Positions 2,088-58,325 of a stretch of DNA of 64,000 nucleotides are shown in pieces. The DNA comes from Candidatus Saccharimonadales bacterium (GTDB taxonomy: Bacteria; Patescibacteriota; Saccharimonadia; Saccharimonadales; UBA10212). Numbering within the stretch: the first letter of the stretch is position 1; every line of letters begins with the position of its first letter. The notes below the pieces were generated by a model. That model made no database searches, had not been told where the DNA came from, and saw only the letters and a list, made by a program, of their open reading frames with translations. The stretch is from NCBI GenBank assembly GCA_035717985.1, contig DASTHW010000013.1:7656-71655 (forward strand), read 5' to 3'. Position numbers and translations under genes: made by a program.

Positions 2088-2540
2088 TTAGTCTTTTATA
2101 TAAAGCAGGACAAAGTTTTCAACCTTAGCCGGTACAAGATTGGGAAAATAAAAATAATTACAGACAATACGGGCGCCGGATTTGGCCTCAGCTAAAATCT
2201 TCTTTTCAAGAGCCGGCATAATAGAGCGAATACCAAAAACGGTAATGATATCGTAGGGCCCTAAGTTGTGATCCCAAAAGTTGGCCTGCTCAATTTTAGC
2301 CTGGCGGGCGAGGCCAGCCTTCTTTAAACGGTCTTGGGCCAGTTTAGCCCGCTCGCTGTCAATTTCTAAACCGAGTGCTCGGGCGCCAGCTTTAGCCATC
2401 GCAATTACCACTCGGCCGTCGCCGGCGCCCAAATCGAGGCTGTTGTCACCGGCCCCCGCCTTGGCAAACTTCAGCATTATCTCCAGCCGGTCATCAGAGC
2501 TGGGCACGTAAGGAATATCATAGTTATCATCGCTAGCCAC
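2088..2540 (-). CDS. small class I SAM-dependent methyltransferase
   Basis: 150 aa with motif I LDLGAGDGRVVIAMAKAG and a Rossmann-like MTase fold pattern. Confidence 0.6.
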   Translation of the reverse strand: MASDDNYDIPYVPSSDDRLEIMLKFAKAGAGDNSLDLGAGDGRVVIAMAKAGARALGLEIDSERAKLAQDRLKKAGLARQAKIEQANFWDHNLGPYDIITVFGIRSIMPALEKKILAEAKSGARIVCNYFYFPNLVPAKVENFVLLYIKD

Positions 2541-2814: not shown

Positions 2815-4850
2815 ACGCGGGCGTCTTGATTCAAAAGCCGCTGGCGCATCTGAGCAAAGCGCCTTTGCTGTTCTAGGGCAATCTCTTCAGGTGACTTTTC
2901 AGCCGTGCTGTTTCCATTGCCAACGGCGGTAGTTACCTTTTCTGTCCGGCCGCCAATAATATTGACTACCGGGATAACGATAGGGCTCCGCTGGGTCCGC
3001 TCATATAGAAAGTGGGTGATGTAGTCTTTGAGTTCAGCCTTAAAGCGGTCTAAATCTACCCGCTTAAAGCGCTGGGTAACCGCCCGGCGCAGTTCGGCCC
3101 GAAAGTCATTCATCAACTGCTCGTTCTCTTTCATATAGATGAAGCCACGGCTGATGATATCTGGACTGGTTAACAGCGAGCCGGTCTTTTTATCGATGGT
3201 CAGCACTACGGCTACTAGCCCTTCTTCAGCCAGCAAGACCCGGTCTTTAATGACTACGTTAGGCACAATCGACCCGGTCTGGTCGACCAAAATGGTACCG
3301 TGCGGCACTTGGCCACTAATTTGGATTTTGTCTTTAGTGACCGAAATGACATCGCCGTTTTCAGCGTTAATACAGTTCGAGCGCGGAATGCCCTGCTCGA
3401 TAGCAATATCGATGTGCCGCTTTTTAGAGCGGTATGGCCCCCACATGGGGATGAAGAATTTGGGCTTGACCATGGCTATCATTTCGCCGAACTCTTCCAT
3501 ACTGCCGTGACCGGATACATGCAGTGGTCCGGCGCCGTCAATATCATGAGTTTCATGACGAAAGACATGCACGCCTTTACGCATTAAATCATCCACCATG
3601 ACACCAATTAGGGCGTCGTTACCAGTCTCCGGAATCGGCGTACTAGACAAAATTACGGTGTCTTGTTCTTTTAGGCTGACATGTTTGTGGTCGCCCATAC
3701 TCATGCGCACCAGGGCCGAATTGGGCTCGCCTTGGCCGCCGGTACAAACTACCACCACATCTTGATCTTTCAGCGAAGGCACGCTGGCAATCGGCACAAA
3801 TGTACCTTTTGGAATCTTCATGAAACCATTACGCACGGCCATCTCAAGAGTCGAAATCATGCTCCGGCCATCAAGCGCGATTTTGCGGTTATGATGCACG
3901 GCCGCGTTGACTATCATCTGGATACGGTTAACATTGGTCGAGAATATGGCAATGAAAATCCGGCCCGGCGCCTGCTCCATAATATTGATGAAGCTTTGTT
4001 CAAGGTTACTTTCACTGGGAGTGCGGCCCGGGCGCTCGGTTGTGGTCGACTCGCTCATTAGAACCAGCACATTATCTTTAGCTAGCTCTTTGATGCGGTC
4101 AATGTCGGTGCGCTCGTGGTCTAGCGGGTTGGGGTCCAGCCGGAAGTCGCCGGTATTTATCAGGCGGCCAATCGGCGTATCAATGGCTATCAACGTGCTT
4201 CCCGGGATGGAATGGGTTATGCGCACCAGCTCAATGTAGAACTGGCCTAGTTTTAGCCGCTCATGGGTATCTTCGTTCATAGCGACAGTTTTCAGCTCAA
4301 AGCCTTCCGGCATGGGCAAACCAAAGTTCTGAAAGATTTCCTCTACCCGGCCGATGGTAAAGCGGCTACCGTACACCGGCACACCAGGGTAATTTGGCAA
4401 AATGTGCGGCAAGGCACCGATATGGTCTAGATGTCCATGGCTTATTACAAAACCGCGTAGTTTAGATTTGATTTGGTCCAGATAGGTAGTATCACTGATG
4501 GCGTAGTTAATCCCGGGCAGGTCAACGCCTAAATCGTTACCGCAGTCAATAACAATGGCGTCATTTTGATACTCGATCACCAGCATGTTTTTACTACCGC
4601 CGCCGTCAAAACCGCCCAAGCCGATAATTTTCAGTTGGGGGCTATCATCAATGACGTTTGCCCGCTTGGGCTTAGGGCCAGCCGAGGCCGCCAGATATTG
4701 ATTGGCTTTACGGTTAGCATCAGACACAGCCTGTTTTTGAGCCCGGATGGCCGCCCCGCGGCTAAGGCTCCGCCCGCCACCGGCTGGGCGCTTATTTTTG
4801 TCGCCAGCGCCAGACTTATTTGGTTGGTTTTTAGATTGATTTTTCTCCAT
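2808..4850 (-). CDS. rnj: ribonuclease J (metallo-beta-lactamase/beta-CASP) with a basic low-complexity N-terminal extension
   Basis: HGHLDHIGALP motif, beta-CASP region and a C-terminal domain; 680 aa. The first ~65 aa are rich in Lys/Arg/Gly/Ala. Confidence 0.9.
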   Translation of the reverse strand: MEKNQSKNQPNKSGAGDKNKRPAGGGRSLSRGAAIRAQKQAVSDANRKANQYLAASAGPKPKRANVIDDSPQLKIIGLGGFDGGGSKNMLVIEYQNDAIVIDCGNDLGVDLPGINYAISDTTYLDQIKSKLRGFVISHGHLDHIGALPHILPNYPGVPVYGSRFTIGRVEEIFQNFGLPMPEGFELKTVAMNEDTHERLKLGQFYIELVRITHSIPGSTLIAIDTPIGRLINTGDFRLDPNPLDHERTDIDRIKELAKDNVLVLMSESTTTERPGRTPSESNLEQSFINIMEQAPGRIFIAIFSTNVNRIQMIVNAAVHHNRKIALDGRSMISTLEMAVRNGFMKIPKGTFVPIASVPSLKDQDVVVVCTGGQGEPNSALVRMSMGDHKHVSLKEQDTVILSSTPIPETGNDALIGVMVDDLMRKGVHVFRHETHDIDGAGPLHVSGHGSMEEFGEMIAMVKPKFFIPMWGPYRSKKRHIDIAIEQGIPRSNCINAENGDVISVTKDKIQISGQVPHGTILVDQTGSIVPNVVIKDRVLLAEEGLVAVVLTIDKKTGSLLTSPDIISRGFIYMKENEQLMNDFRAELRRAVTQRFKRVDLDRFKAELKDYITHFLYERTQRSPIVIPVVNIIGGRTEKVTTAVGNGNSTAEKSPEEIALEQQRRFAQMRQRLLNQDARVD

Positions 4851-4889
4851 ATGTTCCTTTCTTTTTAGAGATTTATAAAATTAGTTTTC

Positions 4890-5495
4890 TTAAATTTTGG
4901 CTAAAGTTAGCGGGATTTTGGCAAAATCTTCAATTAACGTCTCCCGCATGGCGCCGTTATAAAGGGCCGCCGCCGGATGAAAAAGCGGTAGGATGACCCA
5001 AGTCGCAGTTTTGTCTTCACCGCCGGCGTCTAAGCGAACTTTAATCCGCTTTGGCTGGCCGTGGCACTGACTAATTTTGAGTCCGGGAAGAAGGGTCTCC
5101 ATGCTATGCCGCCCCAGCGTCACTATCAACTTTGGATTAATGACCATCAGCTGTTTTTTCAGATAGGGCAAGAAGGCTATTTTCTCCTCGGGCAAAGGGT
5201 CGCGGTTATTCGGAGGCCGGTATTTAACGATGTTAGTTATATAAACATCTTTTCTGTCCAGACCAATGCCGGCCAGCATTTCGTTCAAGAATTTGCCGGC
5301 CGCCCCGACAAACGGCAGACCCTGCTCGTCCTCATTTTTACCCGGCGCCTCGCCGATAAATACCACTTCGGCCGAGGCGTTACCGTCGCCAAAAACCAGC
5401 TGGGTAGCAGAACTCGCCAGCTCGCTACAGACCCGGGCGTCTAAGATTTTCTTTTTAATGTCGTCTAATTCGGACTGCTTAGTTTTTACTGCCAC
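4890..5495 (-). CDS. uracil-DNA glycosylase, family 4-like
   Basis: GEAPGKNEDEQGLPFVGAAGKFLNEML and a C-terminal HPAAALYN motif characteristic of the UDG superfamily family 4/5. The 5' end overlaps pnp by 17 nt. Confidence 0.8.
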   Translation of the reverse strand: MAVKTKQSELDDIKKKILDARVCSELASSATQLVFGDGNASAEVVFIGEAPGKNEDEQGLPFVGAAGKFLNEMLAGIGLDRKDVYITNIVKYRPPNNRDPLPEEKIAFLPYLKKQLMVINPKLIVTLGRHSMETLLPGLKISQCHGQPKRIKVRLDAGGEDKTATWVILPLFHPAAALYNGAMRETLIEDFAKIPLTLAKI

Positions 5496-7623
5496 TGCTT
5501 TTAGTTAATTCTCTCTGGGCGGCTTTCATTGATAGCTGAAGTCGGCCACGGTCGTCAATGGCCACCAACTTGACGGTTACCTTGTCGCCTTCTTTAACTA
5601 CATCGCTGGGCTTTTCCACCCTCTCTTCTTTCATCTCAGAGACATGGACCAGCCCTTCTTTACCGGGCAAAATTTCTACAAAGGCGCCAAAGTCCAGCAC
5701 GCTGACAACTCGGCAATCCTCGTAGATTTTGCCAACTTCCGGCTCGGCCGTTAGGTGGCGGATGAACTGGATAGCGGCGTCAATACTCTTTTTGTCCGGG
5801 CTGGCAATCATGACCGTGCCGTCATCCTTAATATCAATCTCAGCGCCAGTTTCGGCCACAATTTTATTGATGGTCTCACCGCCCTTACCAATGACCTCAC
5901 GGATTTTATCGGGATTAATGCTAATCGCCTCAACCCGTGGCGCATATGGGCTCATTTCACTGCGCGGGCCGGCTAGGGTGCTCAGCATGTGGCGCAGTAT
6001 CTCAGCCCGGCCGCCTTTAGCCTGGGCTAGCGCCTTAGCCATAATCTCTGGTGTAATGCCGTGCACTTTGATGTCCATTTGGAGCGCTGTAATGCCCTTT
6101 TGGGTACCGGCTACCTTAAAGTCCATGTCACCGGCAAAATCCTCAGCGCCGGCAATATCAGATAGCACTACATATTTTTTGCTATCCGGGTCAGTCACTA
6201 GGCCCATAGCAATGCCGCTAACGGGCGCTTTCAAAGGCACACCGGCATCCATCAGGCTAAGACAGCCGCTACAAGTAGCCGCCATAGATGTGGAACCGTT
6301 ACTGCTCATAATCTCAGTCACGGTACGGATAGTATATGGAAAGTCTTTTTCGTCAGGAATCACGGCTGACAAGGCCCGCTGGGCTAGAGCCGAGTGGCCG
6401 ATTTCCCGCCGGCCGGGGCTACCTAGGCGCTTAATCTCACCAGAGGCATAGCCAGGCATATTGTAGTGGTGAAAGAAGCGCCTCTCTTCGTTAGCTTCCA
6501 TGGTATCAACTAGCTGGGCGTAGCTGAGCGGCGCCAGCGTGGTCACATTCAAGGCCTGAGTCGAACCGCGGGTAAAAATGCTACTTCCGTGGGCCCTTGG
6601 TAGAACGCCTACCTCACTGGACAAGGTGCGGATTTGATCGGGTTTACGGTTATCGGGCCGCAGGCCGTCTTGCAAAATAGCCCGGCGGACTTCTTTTTTA
6701 ATGGCTGAGTCAAAAGCCTCAATATACTCCGTTAAGTCGGCCTCCTCGCCCAGCTCTCCCCTGAAATGCTCGGTTAGCTGGTCTTTCAAAGCGTCAATTT
6801 TTTGACCACGCTCTTCTTGGTTGCCGCGAGTGTCGGTCAGCTTGCCGGCTAAGAATTTATCAACGGCTTTTTGAACTGATTCGTCCGGTAAGGCTAGTTC
6901 ATAATCGCGGGCTTTGGTACCCACTTTTTTAGCCAACTCCTCCTGCAGGGCAATCGCCGGCTGGATAGATTTATGCGCCAGCTCGATAGCCGAGACCATA
7001 GTCGACTCATCTACTTCACCTGCGCCGGCTTCTACCATCATGATGGCGCCAGCCGTACCGGCTACCGTTAGATCTAGATCGCTGTCAGCTAGCTCTAAAG
7101 CAGTTGGGTAAGCCTTCAGCTTGCCGTCCACCAAACCAACTCGCACCCCAGCCACCGGCCCGTCAAACGGCGCACCAGACAGCTTTAGGGCCGTACTAAC
7201 TGCAATCATGGCCGGAATATCAGACTTTAACTCAGGATCCAGGCTTAGCACCATAGCAATAGCCTGCACTTCATCACGGTAGCCTTTCGGGAATAGCGGC
7301 CGGATCGGCCTATCTATCAGGCGGCCGGCTAAAATGGCTTCCTCGCTAGGCCGGCCCTCACGCTTAATAAAGCGGCTTCCGCTAATCTTGCCAGCGGCAT
7401 AAAAACGCTCCTCATAGTCAACGCTTAAAGGGAAAAAATCCAGGCCAGGCACCGGCGGACCAACACTAACAATAGCCTCCACTACGGTGTCGCCATAGCG
7501 GACCGTTACCGCCGAGGTGGCCTGAAAAGCCAGCCGGCCGGTCTCAAGCGTCAATTTACGGCCGCAAAAGTCGCCGCTGACACTGATTATCTTTTTACCA
7601 AAGGGGTTTATGGTACTAGCCAT
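5479..7623 (-). CDS. pnp: polynucleotide phosphorylase (PNPase)
   Basis: 714 aa with two RNase PH domains, a KH domain (EVIGKGGETINKI) and a C-terminal S1 domain. Confidence 0.95.
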   Translation of the reverse strand: MASTINPFGKKIISVSGDFCGRKLTLETGRLAFQATSAVTVRYGDTVVEAIVSVGPPVPGLDFFPLSVDYEERFYAAGKISGSRFIKREGRPSEEAILAGRLIDRPIRPLFPKGYRDEVQAIAMVLSLDPELKSDIPAMIAVSTALKLSGAPFDGPVAGVRVGLVDGKLKAYPTALELADSDLDLTVAGTAGAIMMVEAGAGEVDESTMVSAIELAHKSIQPAIALQEELAKKVGTKARDYELALPDESVQKAVDKFLAGKLTDTRGNQEERGQKIDALKDQLTEHFRGELGEEADLTEYIEAFDSAIKKEVRRAILQDGLRPDNRKPDQIRTLSSEVGVLPRAHGSSIFTRGSTQALNVTTLAPLSYAQLVDTMEANEERRFFHHYNMPGYASGEIKRLGSPGRREIGHSALAQRALSAVIPDEKDFPYTIRTVTEIMSSNGSTSMAATCSGCLSLMDAGVPLKAPVSGIAMGLVTDPDSKKYVVLSDIAGAEDFAGDMDFKVAGTQKGITALQMDIKVHGITPEIMAKALAQAKGGRAEILRHMLSTLAGPRSEMSPYAPRVEAISINPDKIREVIGKGGETINKIVAETGAEIDIKDDGTVMIASPDKKSIDAAIQFIRHLTAEPEVGKIYEDCRVVSVLDFGAFVEILPGKEGLVHVSEMKEERVEKPSDVVKEGDKVTVKLVAIDDRGRLQLSMKAAQRELTKSSGSKN

Positions 7624-49231: not shown

Positions 49232-49434
49232 AGGTCATCCTCCTTAGACTTGTTTAGAGATAGGGCTTACATGATTTGGTATAGCGCAAGGCCATAGCCG
49301 AGGATACGGACTGAGGCGTATATCAATACCCCGAAGGAGTACCGCAGGCTATAACACAGCGATATGCCAAATAGTGGTGGCTATTGCCAACTGGCTTAGC
49401 CAGTGGGCAGGTCAACACGGCATGTAAGTCCTAG

Positions 49435-49473
49435 CTAGCACTCATAATAGTAGAGTGCCAAATTTGCTGTCAA
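49435..49473 (-). promoter_or_regulatory. groESL sigma70-type promoter (TTGACA-17-TATTAT) overlapped by CIRCE-like operator CTAGCACTC-N9-GAGTGCCAA
   Basis: CIRCE consensus is TTAGCACTC-N9-GAGTGCTAA; the observed element is at 49435-49461. On the minus strand, TTGACA (49468-49473) and TATTAT (49445-49450) have a 17-nt spacer. Confidence 0.65.
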
Positions 49474-49604: not shown

Positions 49605-50048
49605 GTGCGAAAGGGCACCTTGGTCCATGGGGACCTGATGGTGGCGATCGTCCGTAGGGGACGGGGCTGGCGCGTCCGCGTCACCCGCCCCCGCGGCCAC
49701 AAGGATCTGCCGCCGCGCGTGCTGGGGCTCATGCTCCTGCATTTCGAGCACTCAGAGCTGTGCCCGAAGGGGCAGGAGTACCGGCCCGGCAGAACGCTGG
49801 ACGAGACGGGGAGGCGCTTCATCCTCGTCGACGGTCCCCTGGACGATTCGTTCTGCACCGATGAGTGCCAGCGGAGCCTGGCCTCGTCGCACGCGAGCGA
49901 CATCGTCGGAAGGTGCTTCGAAGTGGCCGCCAGCGAGGAGGCCATCACGGACAAGGTCGACGCCGGTGCGGGCGAGCCCGAGCCGGCCAAGCACTCCAGG
50001 CGCCAGCGCCTGCCGGCACGTGTCTACGCTCCCGCTCGCGCGGCCTGA
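49605..50048 (+). CDS. high-GC ORF (147 aa), hypothetical; actinobacterial-style codon usage
   Basis: GTG start 6 nt after GGAGAGGGGAG. G/C at codon position 3 is very high throughout (ctg, gtc, cgc, gac, ttc, atc...). The product is Arg-rich, MRKGTLVHGDLMVAIVRRGRGWRVRVTRPRGHKDLPPRVLGLMLLHFEHSELCPKG... Confidence 0.55.
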   Translation: MRKGTLVHGDLMVAIVRRGRGWRVRVTRPRGHKDLPPRVLGLMLLHFEHSELCPKGQEYRPGRTLDETGRRFILVDGPLDDSFCTDECQRSLASSHASDIVGRCFEVAASEEAITDKVDAGAGEPEPAKHSRRQRLPARVYAPARAA

Positions 50049-56379: not shown

Positions 56380-56772
56380 CTAGAAGGCTAGTTTTTGGGC
56401 CATGTCTGCCAAGGCTGAGTGATTCGGCTCTGGATCAGCTGGCCGCCGAGCATAATAGTTTTCGGCAGAATTAAACGGGATCAGATGAACATGGGCATGC
56501 GGAACTTCTTCACCAATCACCTTCACACCCACGAATCTTACACTCAGAACATCACGAATACGGCGAGCCACTAGCTTAACTGTGGCCATCAGGGCCTGGT
56601 AATCGTCATCTGGTAAATCCCATAAAAACTCTATTTGAGTCTTAGGAATTACTAAGGCATGGCCGGGCTGGATTGGATTTATGTCCAGAAATGCTAGGGT
56701 TTTGTCGTCTTCATAGATTTTATGAGCCGGGATTTCGCCCTTGATGATTTTGGTAAAAATGCTGTCGGCCAT
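56380..56772 (-). CDS. HIT-family (histidine triad) nucleotide hydrolase/transferase
   Basis: HAHVHLIP histidine triad; 130 aa. Confidence 0.85.
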   Translation of the reverse strand: MADSIFTKIIKGEIPAHKIYEDDKTLAFLDINPIQPGHALVIPKTQIEFLWDLPDDDYQALMATVKLVARRIRDVLSVRFVGVKVIGEEVPHAHVHLIPFNSAENYYARRPADPEPNHSALADMAQKLAF

Positions 56773-56949
56773 TTATTTGATCCAGCTTTTTAAGACAAAG
56801 AAAACAATAATAAAAATCAGCAAAGCACAAATGCCGGCGGCCTGGACCGATTGGCGGGTATTACTGGCACCGCCCCGCCGCTGAAATTTGGTATAAATCC
56901 AGCTACCGGAACCGATAGCGAATAAAAAGCTAACTACTGCCGGACCCAT
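56773..56949 (-). CDS. small two-TM membrane protein (58 aa), hypothetical; translationally coupled to the HIT gene
   Basis: Minus-strand ORF MGPAVVSFLFAIGSGSWIYTKFQRRGGASNTRQSVQAAGICALLIFIIVFFVLKSWIK. Its TAA stop is immediately followed by the HIT ATG. It is below the ORF-track cutoff. Confidence 0.4.
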   Translation of the reverse strand: MGPAVVSFLFAIGSGSWIYTKFQRRGGASNTRQSVQAAGICALLIFIIVFFVLKSWIK

Positions 56950-57000
56950 AAATAAATGATATCAGATTAGTGTTTGTTGATTTAATAAAGTTTTTATTGT

Positions 57001-57013
57001 ATAGTATACATGT
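57001..57013. promoter_or_regulatory. palindrome TGTATA-g-TATACA in the divergent promoter region between the HIT operon and cassette 3
   Basis: Read directly from the sequence, adjacent to a TTGACA hexamer at 57017-57022. Confidence 0.3.
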
Positions 57014-57044
57014 ACGTTGACAGCTGGCGAGCCACGTATTCCTT

Positions 57045-57111
57045 GGACCCGAATCCCGCTTGAAAAAAGCGGAACAGTGGACCCGAATCCCGCTTGAAAA
57101 AAGCGGAACAG
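57045..57111 (+). repeat. two tandem copies of a 33-bp unit GGACCCGAATCCCGCTTGAAAAAAGCGGAACAG (34-bp period), each with an internal hairpin CCGCTT-GAAAA-AAGCGG
   Basis: Copy 1 is at 57045-57077 and copy 2 at 57079-57111, with identical sequence. Copy 2 runs directly into the RBS AAAGGAA and the ATG at 57123. Confidence 0.85.
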
Positions 57112-57122
57112 AAAGGAATGAC

Positions 57123-57533
57123 ATGGCAATTTTCTACAGATGCACCAACAACGGTACGACCGCAGTCGTTCCGGAGAACGTGTACGAGCAGATCCAGGCC
57201 CAACACGACTGGTGGATGAGGGTGCAGAGGGAGACTGGCGGCCGCGAGCCGATCGAGTCGCCGGAGTACCCCAAGCCCATCTTCACCTTCGTGCGGAGGG
57301 AGCACCTCGGTCCGGACCTCCACCTCAGGAACTACGTGACCGCCAGCCTCGAGCTGATGGACACGCTCCTGCAGGGGCATGTGGTCTTCAGCGGGGAGTT
57401 CTACGTGCCGTTCAGCAATAGTATCGAGCTGAACGACCACGACCCGCGTGCTGAAGGCGAGAGGACCTTCCGGACGACACTCGAGCAGGCCATCAAGGCC
57501 TTCGAGCTCGTCCGGGCAGGCACTACGCAGTAA
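57123..57533 (+). CDS. high-GC ORF (136 aa), hypothetical; actinobacterial-style codon usage
   Basis: ATG after AAAGGAATGAC. Third-position G/C is near-universal (acc, gtc, gag, atc, ttc, ctc, gac...). Product MAIFYRCTNNGTTAVVPENVYEQIQAQHDWWMRVQRETGGREPIESPEYPKPIFTFVRREHLGPD... The ORF-track entry 57060..57533 begins at a TTG inside the AT-rich repeat and is not favoured. Confidence 0.55.
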   Translation: MAIFYRCTNNGTTAVVPENVYEQIQAQHDWWMRVQRETGGREPIESPEYPKPIFTFVRREHLGPDLHLRNYVTASLELMDTLLQGHVVFSGEFYVPFSNSIELNDHDPRAEGERTFRTTLEQAIKAFELVRAGTTQ

Positions 57534-57574
57534 GAGCAGGCGGGTTCGCCGCTCATCGTACAGCCGGGATCGGT

Positions 57575-57615
57575 GCGGGCGCGCTCTCAGCGCGCCCGCA
57601 TCCCCGGACTTTCTA
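57575..57615 (+). terminator. GC-rich hairpin terminator after the cassette-3 ORF
   Basis: GCGGGCGCGC-TCTCA-GCGCGCCCGC, a perfect 10-bp stem, followed by ATCCCCGGACTTTCTATTTGT. Confidence 0.55.
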
Positions 57616-57691
57616 TTTGTAAGACGCAGGAACCCCGATAAGACTTCTTAAATCGCTAAACACTAGGCTATAATTACCTCTGTTCTTACGC

Positions 57692-57783
<92 letters not shown>

Positions 57784-57815
57784 AAGAAGAAAGGGTGGCC
57801 CCGGCCCGCTAAAGT

Positions 57816-58325
57816 CTAAAAGATGGTGAAGCGGGGGACTTTGATAGATAGCTGGGGCCGCGGCAGTTTGGCCAATTGAGTCCGCCAGGCCGGTTGGAGC
57901 CGTTTTGCCCGGGTACTGGTTTTAACCTGAGCTTTAGCCTTGGCCTTGGCTTTAGCAAAGACAGTAACCGGCAGGCTTTTAGCACAAAGGATTATCCCAA
58001 TCTCTAAGAGAAACATAGTATCTAGCGGCTGTACCCAGCCGTATAAAAATGAGCCCATGGCGGTATCGAGCCCGGCTATTAGACCAAAAGCGATTACCGC
58101 TAGCCCGGCGCTTAGAAAATACTCGCGGGTTTTGTCGCTAAAACGGTGAGTGTTAAAACTTAGCCAAACCAGCCCAGCCGCCAGCAAGACGCGTACGACG
58201 GCTACAAATATATTTAGCGAGGCAAAAGCAAACAGCAGACTATGGCTATGCGCCAGCGACATGTAGAAAAAGCCTAACTGGGCCAACAGTAATACAACAC
58301 TAATAACCTTGCTGGTTCTAGCCAT
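57816..58325 (-). CDS. polytopic membrane protein, hypothetical (169 aa)
   Basis: 4-5 predicted TM helices with a basic C-terminus. Confidence 0.5.
   Translation of the reverse strand: MARTSKVISVVLLLAQLGFFYMSLAHSHSLLFAFASLNIFVAVVRVLLAAGLVWLSFNTHRFSDKTREYFLSAGLAVIAFGLIAGLDTAMGSFLYGWVQPLDTMFLLEIGIILCAKSLPVTVFAKAKAKAKAQVKTSTRAKRLQPAWRTQLAKLPRPQLSIKVPRFTIF

Follow-up and report, generated by a model that had tools for sequence, protein, structure and literature searches.

We analysed a 64,000-nt stretch of the genome of a Candidatus Saccharimonadales bacterium (GenBank assembly GCA_035717985.1, contig DASTHW010000013.1, positions 7,656 to 71,655; the whole stretch is called the window below), and in particular a short forward-strand module in which a tandemly repeated leader directly precedes a gene for a 136-aa protein. 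The module comprises the elements listed here, including a Shine-Dalgarno sequence (SD) and start codon, a segment facing this ribosome-binding site (the anti-RBS segment), the open reading frame (ORF), and two arms of a putative 5′-3′ helix (the panhandle).

56977..57005, forward strand: predicted sigma-70-type promoter (TTGATT, 17 nt, TATAGT; 9/12 matches)
57011..57030, forward strand: panhandle 5′ arm, starting at the predicted first transcribed bases; pairs with 57543-57562 in the minimum free energy (MFE) and centroid folds
57031..57044, forward strand: anti-RBS segment GCCACGUAUUCCUU, predicted to pair with SD, spacer and AUG (helix P0; duplex -15.2 kcal/mol)
57045..57077, forward strand: motif unit 1, consisting of GGACCCGAAUCC, hairpin P2 (57056-57061 with 57067-57072) and GAACAG; 36 bits with covariance model (CM) R1
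57079..57111, forward strand: motif unit 2, same sequence as unit 1, hairpin at 57090-57106; 48.8 bits with CM R1
57113..57125, forward strand: ribosome-binding region, SD AAGGAAU at 57113-57119 and ATG at 57123-57125; pairs with 57031-57044 in predicted folds
57123..57533, forward strand: 136-aa ORF (HET9850397.1, VFP35_02100), member of a Patescibacteria-specific family
57543..57562, forward strand: panhandle 3′ arm GGUUCGCC...CGUACA, beginning 10 nt past the stop codon
57564..57619, forward strand: terminator-like hairpin (core arms 57574-57585 with 57589-57600) followed by a T-rich tract

An earlier inspection of the letters alone (the sequence-only reading) had described two identical, adjacent repeat copies, each with a CCGCTT-GAAAA-AAGCGG hairpin, and both copies are present as described. 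Tandem Repeats Finder reports a period of 34 at 57044-57111, in 2.0 copies with 100% matches (score 136). The 33-mer GGACCCGAATCCCGCTTGAAAAAAGCGGAACAG is found exactly twice, at 57045-57077 and 57079-57111, with 0 occurrences expected from 100 shuffles, and the hairpins occupy 57056-57072 and 57090-57106. The GGACC that opens unit 2 (57079-57083) doubles as the 3′ GGACC box that is present after unit 1 in every locus. Five occurrences of GGA, which in leaders of the CsrA type recurs at several CsrA-bound sites including the SD, can be read in the leader, and its GGACC..GGACC pair is the only one in the whole window. Transcription of the module is predicted to begin near 57011-57013, and the promoter layout recurs at two of the loci from other genomes that we compared with the window (denoted by L-numbers), as TTGATT-N17-TAnnnT in L008 and TTGACA-N17-TATAGT in L009.

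Downstream of the ORF, the perfect GC hairpin that had been given as 10 bp is there, with arms of 12 nt and a 3-nt loop inside a longer stem (57564-57607). A consensus terminator scan did not call the terminator-like structure at 57564-57619, owing to its interrupted T-run. The tRNA-Ser(CGA) gene at 57692-57781 begins 72 nt past the end of the T-rich tract (57619), close to the 75 bp or so first proposed, and the -10 box placed in the intervening spacer can be read as TATAAT (57670-57675).

The ORF that starts at ATG 57123 has the extreme third-position GC content (GC3) ascribed to it, 0.86 at an overall GC of 0.62. The other window ORFs of at least 100 aa range from 0.46 to 0.63 (GroEL, 0.63), except for one at 49605-50048 (0.88), and the first- and second-position values (GC1 and GC2) of the 136-aa ORF are ordinary for the host genome. 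A single-sequence search with the protein returned itself and one relative of 48% identity (locus L001), while a two-sequence profile recovered 123 clusters at E <= 1e-3 among 1.8 billion cluster representatives and a 46-sequence profile 145 family clusters (90% identity clustering). All organism names in the family are those of Patescibacteria (WWE3, Magasanikbacteria, Levybacteria, Woykebacteria, Paceibacterota and Saccharimonadales), and all members are annotated as 'hypothetical'. The motifs NNGV.AVV, P.PIFTF, VTG, LM..LL.GH, FYVPFSN and TTL.EA.EAFGL are conserved among them. The reading frame is conserved, and dN/dS between L014 and L029 is 0.40. The ORF is, on comparative grounds, a real gene.

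No match to the family was found among Pfam, NCBIfam, PHROG and PADLOC models or PDB sequences. The AlphaFold2 (AF2) model of the 136-aa protein is confident (pLDDT 95) and globular; it has no structural neighbour in PDB or BFVD, and structure comparison detected no nucleic-acid-binding fold. The family is acidic (median isoelectric point, pI, 5.3), with a net charge at or below zero in 43 of 46 members and no K, R or H kept in at least 70% of them. A phage or plasmid origin was rejected, as no relative was encoded in the 50,697 phage and 72,556 plasmid records searched with tblastn and two viral-contig pattern scans with the motif gave chance-level matches or none. As sampled so far, the family is found in Patescibacteria, also called the candidate phyla radiation (CPR), only, and its function is unassigned.

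The leader unit recurs ahead of these homologues. Its consensus, in one or two copies, is GGACCCGAAUCC, a variable hairpin, GAACAG, any nucleotide and GGACC, and it lies upstream of homologues in eight further distinct loci besides the window. At L001, home of the 48%-identical homologue, a single copy, GGACCCGAATCC-CATCGC-AACCC-GCGATG-GAACAG, stands before the start codon; its flanks are the same as those of the window unit, and its stem is different yet still complementary. L008, a Saccharibacteria genome reached by a genome-wide pattern scan, has two units, with stems CGG...CCG and CGCTC...GAGCG, and then the homologue. The leader of L009 likewise has two units, whose stems differ and are compensated. 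Four loci (L011, L014, L029 and L031) have one unit followed by an incomplete one, GGACC-NGAA, which runs into the SD. In the low-GC lineages, represented by the WWE3 locus L037 and by L016 (genome GC 35%), all that is seen is a pair of GGACC boxes separated by 8-9 nt, the L016 leader reading just GGGACC-N8-GGACC. The GAACAG-N-GGACC junction is kept in all Saccharimonadia-type loci. Between loci, P2 loops vary from 3 to 10 nt, stems from 4 to 8 bp and GGACC box spacing from 13 to 43 bp, the hairpin always remaining palindromic.

Covariation in P2 was scored on 12 aligned units, among which a misaligned second unit of L009 counts against the structure and renders the figures conservative. Of the alignment cells in P2, 91% are paired, five of the six pairs show changes on both sides, and 20 cells are compensatory. 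The observed score was reached by 0 of 500 shuffles. The covariation score is 0.646, whereas sliding the partner columns yields no more than 0.167. High scores of CM R1, which was built from the aligned units and run over 210 kb of window and loci, are confined to family leaders (27-58 bits), chance loci of earlier pattern scans scoring 15-23 bits. The pattern GGACCCGAAYCC-N8-30-GAACAG-N-GGACC was found in five contigs of a metagenome collection, all directly upstream of family members, and had no match in viral contigs. The motif is absent from the searchable literature. In Rfam 15, cmscan with permissive filters (E <= 10) over 56700-57900 returned nothing in the leader, and gathering-threshold scans of the window, L001, L006, L007 and L008 returned only tRNAs and one 6S RNA.

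Judged by this comparison, the repeat consists of two copies of an RNA motif that is conserved, covaries and is tied to the protein family in every convincing copy found. The presence of such a motif ahead of homologous genes in other genomes supports a further suggestion of the sequence-only reading, that the duplicated leader acts as a cis-regulatory element. The notion of a fresh duplication at an insertion junction fares differently: because the units of L008 and L009 carry different compensated stems, the tandem state appears to be inherited.

Several look-alikes of the unit were also encountered. The out-of-family matches L006 (Sumerlaeota) and L007 came from a 21-base pattern for which we ourselves estimate about five chance matches in 596 Gb; both lack a second GGACC, score about 22 bits and were rejected as chance. 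The L007 site (2147-2195, minus strand; GGACCCGAAUCC-hairpin-GGAACAG, 22 bits) comes from an unrelated, high-GC metagenome-assembled genome, where it directly follows the 3′ end of a 6S RNA gene and precedes a gene for 5-formyltetrahydrofolate cyclo-ligase; it is probably a chance occurrence, since the second GGACC box is missing. Within the window, the unit hairpin matches the anticodon arm of the neighbouring tRNA-Ser(CGA) at 13/17 nt (57056-57091 vs 57719-57768), and AAGCGGAACAGTGGACCCGAATCCC of the repeat unit matches its T-arm region at 19/25 nt; the motif start in L014, GUGGACCCGAAUCCCAC, is three bases off a canonical T arm. We treat tRNA mimicry by the unit as coincidence or distant ancestry, the loops of other loci being 3-10 nt and the T-like stem inconsistent. 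A K-turn or loop-E internal loop was rejected by eye, the GA/AG or AGUA/GAA geometry being missing.

The predicted folds place this motif on top of a helix that would occlude the ribosome-binding site. In the MFE folds of both the leader and the whole transcript, 57031-57044 pairs with 57113-57127 to form P0, with both units enclosed. Pairing of the RBS is also predicted in L008, L001, L014, L029 and L031, through locus-specific bases that include codons 1-3. Segments complementary to the locus's own SD and first codons lie just upstream of the first GGACC box in L001 (GUCGA...GCGACUCC with GGAAGUCGCAUGUCGAC), L008, L014 (UCUUCACCGUCUACCU with AGGAGUCACGAUGAAGA) and L031. The bases facing codons 1-3 appear to shift along with those codons, which we read as covariation. 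We hypothesize that the GGACC boxes can in turn form a 5-bp helix with a central A-A mismatch (P1) on top of P0.

A second predicted helix joins the two ends of the transcript. At most loci, the opening ~20-30 nt of the predicted transcript have their complement in 3′ untranslated region (UTR) sequence starting 8-12 nt after the stop codon. The panhandle arms differ in sequence between the window, L008 (TGGTTCGTTGACAACTTGCAGAGGTG with CACCTCTGCACTGCAACGAACCA), L009, L014, L029 and L016, with complementarity kept, and a shorter complement, GGUAAG with CUUACC or GGCAAGC with GCUUGCC, is found in L001, L011, L020 and L031. Whole-transcript folding recovers the panhandle in the window (MFE -282.8 kcal/mol, z = -8.5 from 20 shuffles) and in L008 (z = -5.0 from 100 shuffles), these z values being inflated by the mixture of an AT-rich leader with a GC-rich ORF. 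In a 10 x 10 matrix of duplex energies, the cognate arms are best in both row and column for L008, L014 and L016 and best in their row for the window. In L016, the segment right after the homologue's stop codon (3376-3410) contains GGACCCGAAACCC, identical at 12/13 positions to the window leader motif, and forms the panhandle 3′ arm. Hairpins 10-45 nt past the stop in L001, L008, L011, L020 and L031 have variable stems and similar loops (RCUUACCA, CUCACCA, GCUUGCCA), which complement a hexamer (GGUAAG, GGUGAG or GGCAAG) close to the 5′ end of the leader at the same locus; together, these loops and hexamers look like a covarying contact between loop and 5′ end.

Selection on RNA structure appears to extend into the coding region. 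Folding z scores of family ORFs run from -1.0 to -5.3 against dinucleotide shuffles and from -0.8 to -4.1 against synonymous-codon permutation (-3.1 and -2.5 for the 136-aa ORF of the window), whereas the values for four control genes of the window lie between -0.7 and +0.45. Because these ORFs fold beyond their shuffles and permutations and the control genes do not, we read the extreme GC3 as part of a probable selection for folded coding RNA. Such selection would also account for the GC3 skew without a recent high-GC donor, which the ordinary GC1 and GC2 do not suggest. Between L014 and L029, the ORF is 84% identical and the neighbouring genes are 83.5% identical, and the 5′ leader (minus a wholly replaced hairpin) and 110 nt of 3′UTR are ~99% identical. 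We rejected the view of a hypervariable ORF between conserved flanks for this pair, as the ORF diverges at the genome-wide rate and the UTRs are instead unusually conserved. By sequence comparison, these UTRs are the clearest sign of non-coding constraint. Their conservation far exceeds that of the protein, so selection may act mainly on the RNA itself.

Together, these findings suggest that the leader is probably a functional cis-acting RNA element governing the translation or stability of the mRNA for the 136-aa protein. Structured regulatory leaders with UTR pairing are known as a general kind; the motif is found neither in Rfam 15 nor in the searchable papers, and the family is unannotated. 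The transcript would be a self-contained, heavily folded module that begins with the 5′ arm and the anti-RBS segment, continues through the GGACC-box units (one or two), the SD, the AUG and the structured, GC3-rich ORF, and closes with the 3′ arm and the terminator hairpin. By default, the anti-RBS segment would pair with the SD and AUG in P0 and hold translation off, and the GGACC-box unit atop P0 would be the part recognised by a factor, whose binding would either stabilise P0 or open it and in this way determine the rate of translation. The 5′-3′ helix would bury and thereby protect the 5′ end, and it would set the terminating ribosome beside the start site. The fixed offset of the 3′ arm past the stop codon suggests that this ribosome may loosen the panhandle next to the start. 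That these elements act as RNA in vivo, which way they regulate and what effector they answer to is what we infer from these models.

Since the module travels without a linked regulator gene, its trigger should be something universal (a metabolite, the ribosome, an RNase), the protein encoded by the module itself, or nothing. Our best guess, a tentative one that we consider less likely than not, is a small ubiquitous ligand acting in riboswitch-like fashion; we make it because there is no linked regulator gene, the module is mobile between contexts, and the protein is acidic without a conserved basic residue. Conserved unpaired joints around a covarying helix, together with the predicted sequestration of the RBS, favour such a reading. 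More speculatively, and with considerable doubt on our part, the GGACC-box unit could be the aptamer of a new, Patescibacteria-confined riboswitch class, with a translation-coupled panhandle gating a portable structured mRNA.

Several observations weigh against this account of the leader as a regulatory RNA. Leaders of the WWE3 type and that of L016 lack the riboswitch-type conserved joints, and that distant lineages go without both these joints and the hairpin is odd for a ligand-binding aptamer. The two window copies are 100% identical, and the second could here be a recent neutral re-duplication. For P0, a test of cognate against non-cognate pairing was weak, with mixed ranks, SDs being similar between loci; for P1, the bases are invariant (GGACC with GGACC), so covariation cannot test the pairing. 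In L001, L011 and L031, the panhandle amounts to a short loop-to-loop contact of 6-7 nt, and none was found in WWE3. To these may be added the inflation of the whole-transcript z values described above and the fact that the claims about the RNA draw on prediction and comparison throughout.

Among the alternatives, the one that survives best is that the hairpins, panhandle and GC3-rich folding serve only to yield a long-lived or RNase III-processed mRNA, with no sensor involved. Placing the 5′ end in a helix of ~20 bp, an RNase III substrate length, agrees with this, as does the excess folding over the whole ORF, and pairing between 5′ and 3′UTRs has precedents in the control of stability and translation (hbs, PMC5737220; icaR, PMC3868564). 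Such a purely structural role, however, needs no invariant 12-nt and 6-nt sequences around a freely varying hairpin, and it leaves unexplained why repeated GGACC boxes are kept in AT-rich lineages. We consider it rather unlikely.

If the leader were an autogenous operator, with its GGACC boxes bound by the product of the same mRNA, perhaps in dimeric form, and the RBS closed as a result, this would explain why motif and protein co-occur across deep divergence, with the GGACC pair as the sole feature kept in WWE3-type loci. As read from the sequence, a GGACC:GGACC duplex would have pseudo-two-fold symmetry, and the searches, within the DNA they covered, turned up the motif at no other gene. The properties of the protein point the other way: its family has a median pI of 5.3, a net charge at or below zero in 43/46 members, no basic residue conserved in at least 70% of them and no detected nucleic-acid-binding fold. 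On balance, this is an unlikely explanation, though not an extravagant one.

A type III-like toxin-antitoxin (TA) system appears more improbable still. Here the repeats would be an RNA antitoxin, cut at the GAACAG-N-GGACC junctions, that neutralises the downstream protein. Repeats of 34 nt in 2.0 copies and a protein of 136 aa fit the values for such systems, namely 31-62 nt, 1.9-5.6 repeats and 45-288 aa (PMC3401426). Single-unit loci always have a second GGACC just after the unit, as two cut sites would need, and the module is accessory and patchily distributed. However, there is no terminator between repeats and gene: unit 2 ends at 57111 and the SD starts at 57113, and the unit hairpin is followed by AACAGAAAGG rather than a U-run, with no terminator called there. 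The protein is not of the ToxN/AbiQ, CptN or TenpN endoribonuclease families and has no PADLOC match, and an acidic protein without conserved basic residues speaks against an RNase toxin. Moreover, several homologous loci have one full unit only, and some have just GGACC boxes. A hok/sok-like type I TA system does not fit either: in place of a hydrophobic toxin of under ~60 aa there is a soluble, acidic protein of 136 aa with a confident globular model, and antisense promoters near 57003-57030 point away from the gene.

The sequence-only reading had likened the locus, with its repeat and nearby tRNA gene, to an integration or duplication scar, and a DNA-level explanation of this kind can be compared with the genomic context. 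Neighbours of the module differ in every locus, and no tRNA is adjacent in L008, L009, L014, L020 and L031. Three relatives (HIT protein 73-76% identical) keep the gene order ValRS-HTH/HAD-HIT-TM58 and lack the 136-aa gene; in these, tRNA-Ser(CGA) lies 0.75-2.1 kb off with other ORFs between. Because these syntenic relatives are without the gene, the module is, on comparative evidence, an accessory insertion into a variable interval between TM58 and tRNA-Ser. The empty-site comparison upholds the idea of an insertion to that extent, and a scar targeted to the tRNA finds no support: the same module occurs in unrelated, tRNA-free contexts, it lies on the 5′ side of tRNA-Ser, inspection of the ORFs at 54-60.5 kb showed no integrase, and the 3′ end of the tRNA was not found as an att-type direct repeat.

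Either a tRNA-targeted mobile-element scar or tandem operator sites for a DNA-binding repressor would fit the absence of the gene from the three syntenic relatives and the variability of the TM58-to-tRNA-Ser interval, the outer 21-nt inverted repeat (81% complementary) that brackets the module, the 19/25-nt resemblance of the unit to the neighbouring tRNA-Ser T-arm region, and the position of the boxes just downstream of the promoter. Set against them are the lack of an integrase or tRNA 3′-end repeat, the location on the 5′ side of the tRNA and the tRNA-free loci elsewhere. For an operator in particular, sequence and length of the palindrome change between loci without loss of its symmetry, and the boxes are spaced at 13-43 bp, a behaviour that fits an RNA helix and not a DNA operator. 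We regard a DNA-level feature as highly improbable. An RNA thermometer, also mentioned in the sequence-only reading, whose anti-RBS helix would melt on warming, is just as improbable: the imperfect helix over SD and AUG would suit it, but it needs no conserved single-stranded sequence, covarying side hairpin or 5′-3′ helix, it leaves the invariant 12-nt and 6-nt flanks unexplained, and the 14-nt window P0 is fairly stable at -15 kcal/mol.

Further features of the surroundings were observed. The outer inverted repeat, TAGTGTTTGTTGATTTAATAA / TTCTTAAATCGCTAAACACTA (56968-56988 and 57645-57665), encloses the module from promoter to terminator; it may delimit an inserted segment or have arisen by chance in AT-rich spacers. 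At L016-L019, a gene for a large serine recombinase (Resolvase domain, 583-609 aa; ~3718-5547) lies directly downstream of the homologue in some contigs and is fragmented or missing in otherwise identical ones, which hints at an adjacent mobile element. The window carries four tRNA-Ser genes (GGA, CGA, GCU and UGA) and one tRNA-Arg within ~20 kb (42764-63063).

The second compositional outlier of the window, the ORF at 49605-50048 (147 aa, GC 0.70, GC3 0.88; a 136-aa version is annotated by NCBI as VFP35_02065, hypothetical), lies between groES and a Mur ligase gene, with a leader from ~49500. It has an apparent promoter-like site of its own, a hairpin, CCGTCCA-ATC-TGGACGG, that abuts the SD, and further hairpins past the stop codon. 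No Pfam, NCBIfam or PHROG match and no GGACC-box motif were found for it, and its folding z is -2.7 against dinucleotide shuffles and -1.0 against codon permutation. Nearby, a CIRCE-like inverted repeat, TAGCACTC-N9-GAGTGCC (49436-49459), stands ~205 nt upstream of groES on the minus strand, with ~190 nt of unassigned sequence (49240-49430) between repeat and gene.

Patescibacteria make up a large share of bacterial diversity. To our knowledge, almost nothing is known of gene regulation in this group, and hardly any cis-regulatory RNAs have been described there. The regulatory RNA we propose would be compact and testable, a 34-nt covarying unit tied to an unannotated family of ~145 clusters without a detectable structural relative. 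Its mRNA would join three features that are each rare in bacteria, namely a tandem-capable leader motif, a stop-anchored 5′-3′ helix and selection on coding-region folding. Should the effector be a metabolite, this would be a new riboswitch class, and should it be the encoded protein, a new RNA-protein pair. If the combination of aptamer and panhandle proves true, the architecture would be one undescribed for a regulatory RNA in any bacterium.

The locus shares features with several known systems. Like type III TA loci (toxIN, cptIN, tenpIN; PMC3401426), it has a tandem repeat array before a small protein gene under a single promoter; unlike them, it has no intervening terminator and no toxin-family fold.

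Small or tandem riboswitch aptamers include guanidine-II/mini-ykkC, with its ACGR loops, preQ1-I and the tandem glycine riboswitch. The present unit resembles these in its size of ~34 nt, its position immediately upstream of the SD, its occurrence once or twice per leader and its tie to one gene family, as well as in the conserved unpaired nucleotides that flank a covarying helix and the predicted sequestration of the RBS in an adjoining one. In contrast to them, it has no Rfam 15 match, its loops are unconserved where guanidine-II keeps ACGR, no pseudoknot is evident, and distant lineages retain just the two GGACC boxes.

Among autoregulatory operators are the E. coli thrS leader, ribosomal-protein leaders and the MS2 coat-protein operator. 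As in these, repeated hairpin sites adjoin the SD of the regulated gene and occlusion of the RBS is the likely output; the difference lies in the protein, which here is acidic, without conserved basic residues or a known RNA-binding fold.

Finally, the hok mRNA folds back on itself through its tac and fbi elements. Pairing between 5′ and 3′UTRs controls mRNA stability or translation for icaR of S. aureus (PMC3868564) and hbs of B. subtilis (PMC5737220). With all three, the mRNA described here would share a long-range helix from the extreme 5′ end to the 3′UTR, an occluded RBS and expected effects on stability or translation. It differs in that it encodes neither a known regulator nor a short hydrophobic toxin and in that no antisense RNA is evident. 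It differs further in the helix itself, which is predicted to enclose the whole ORF, to begin ~8-12 nt past the stop codon and to be maintained by compensating changes across the protein family.

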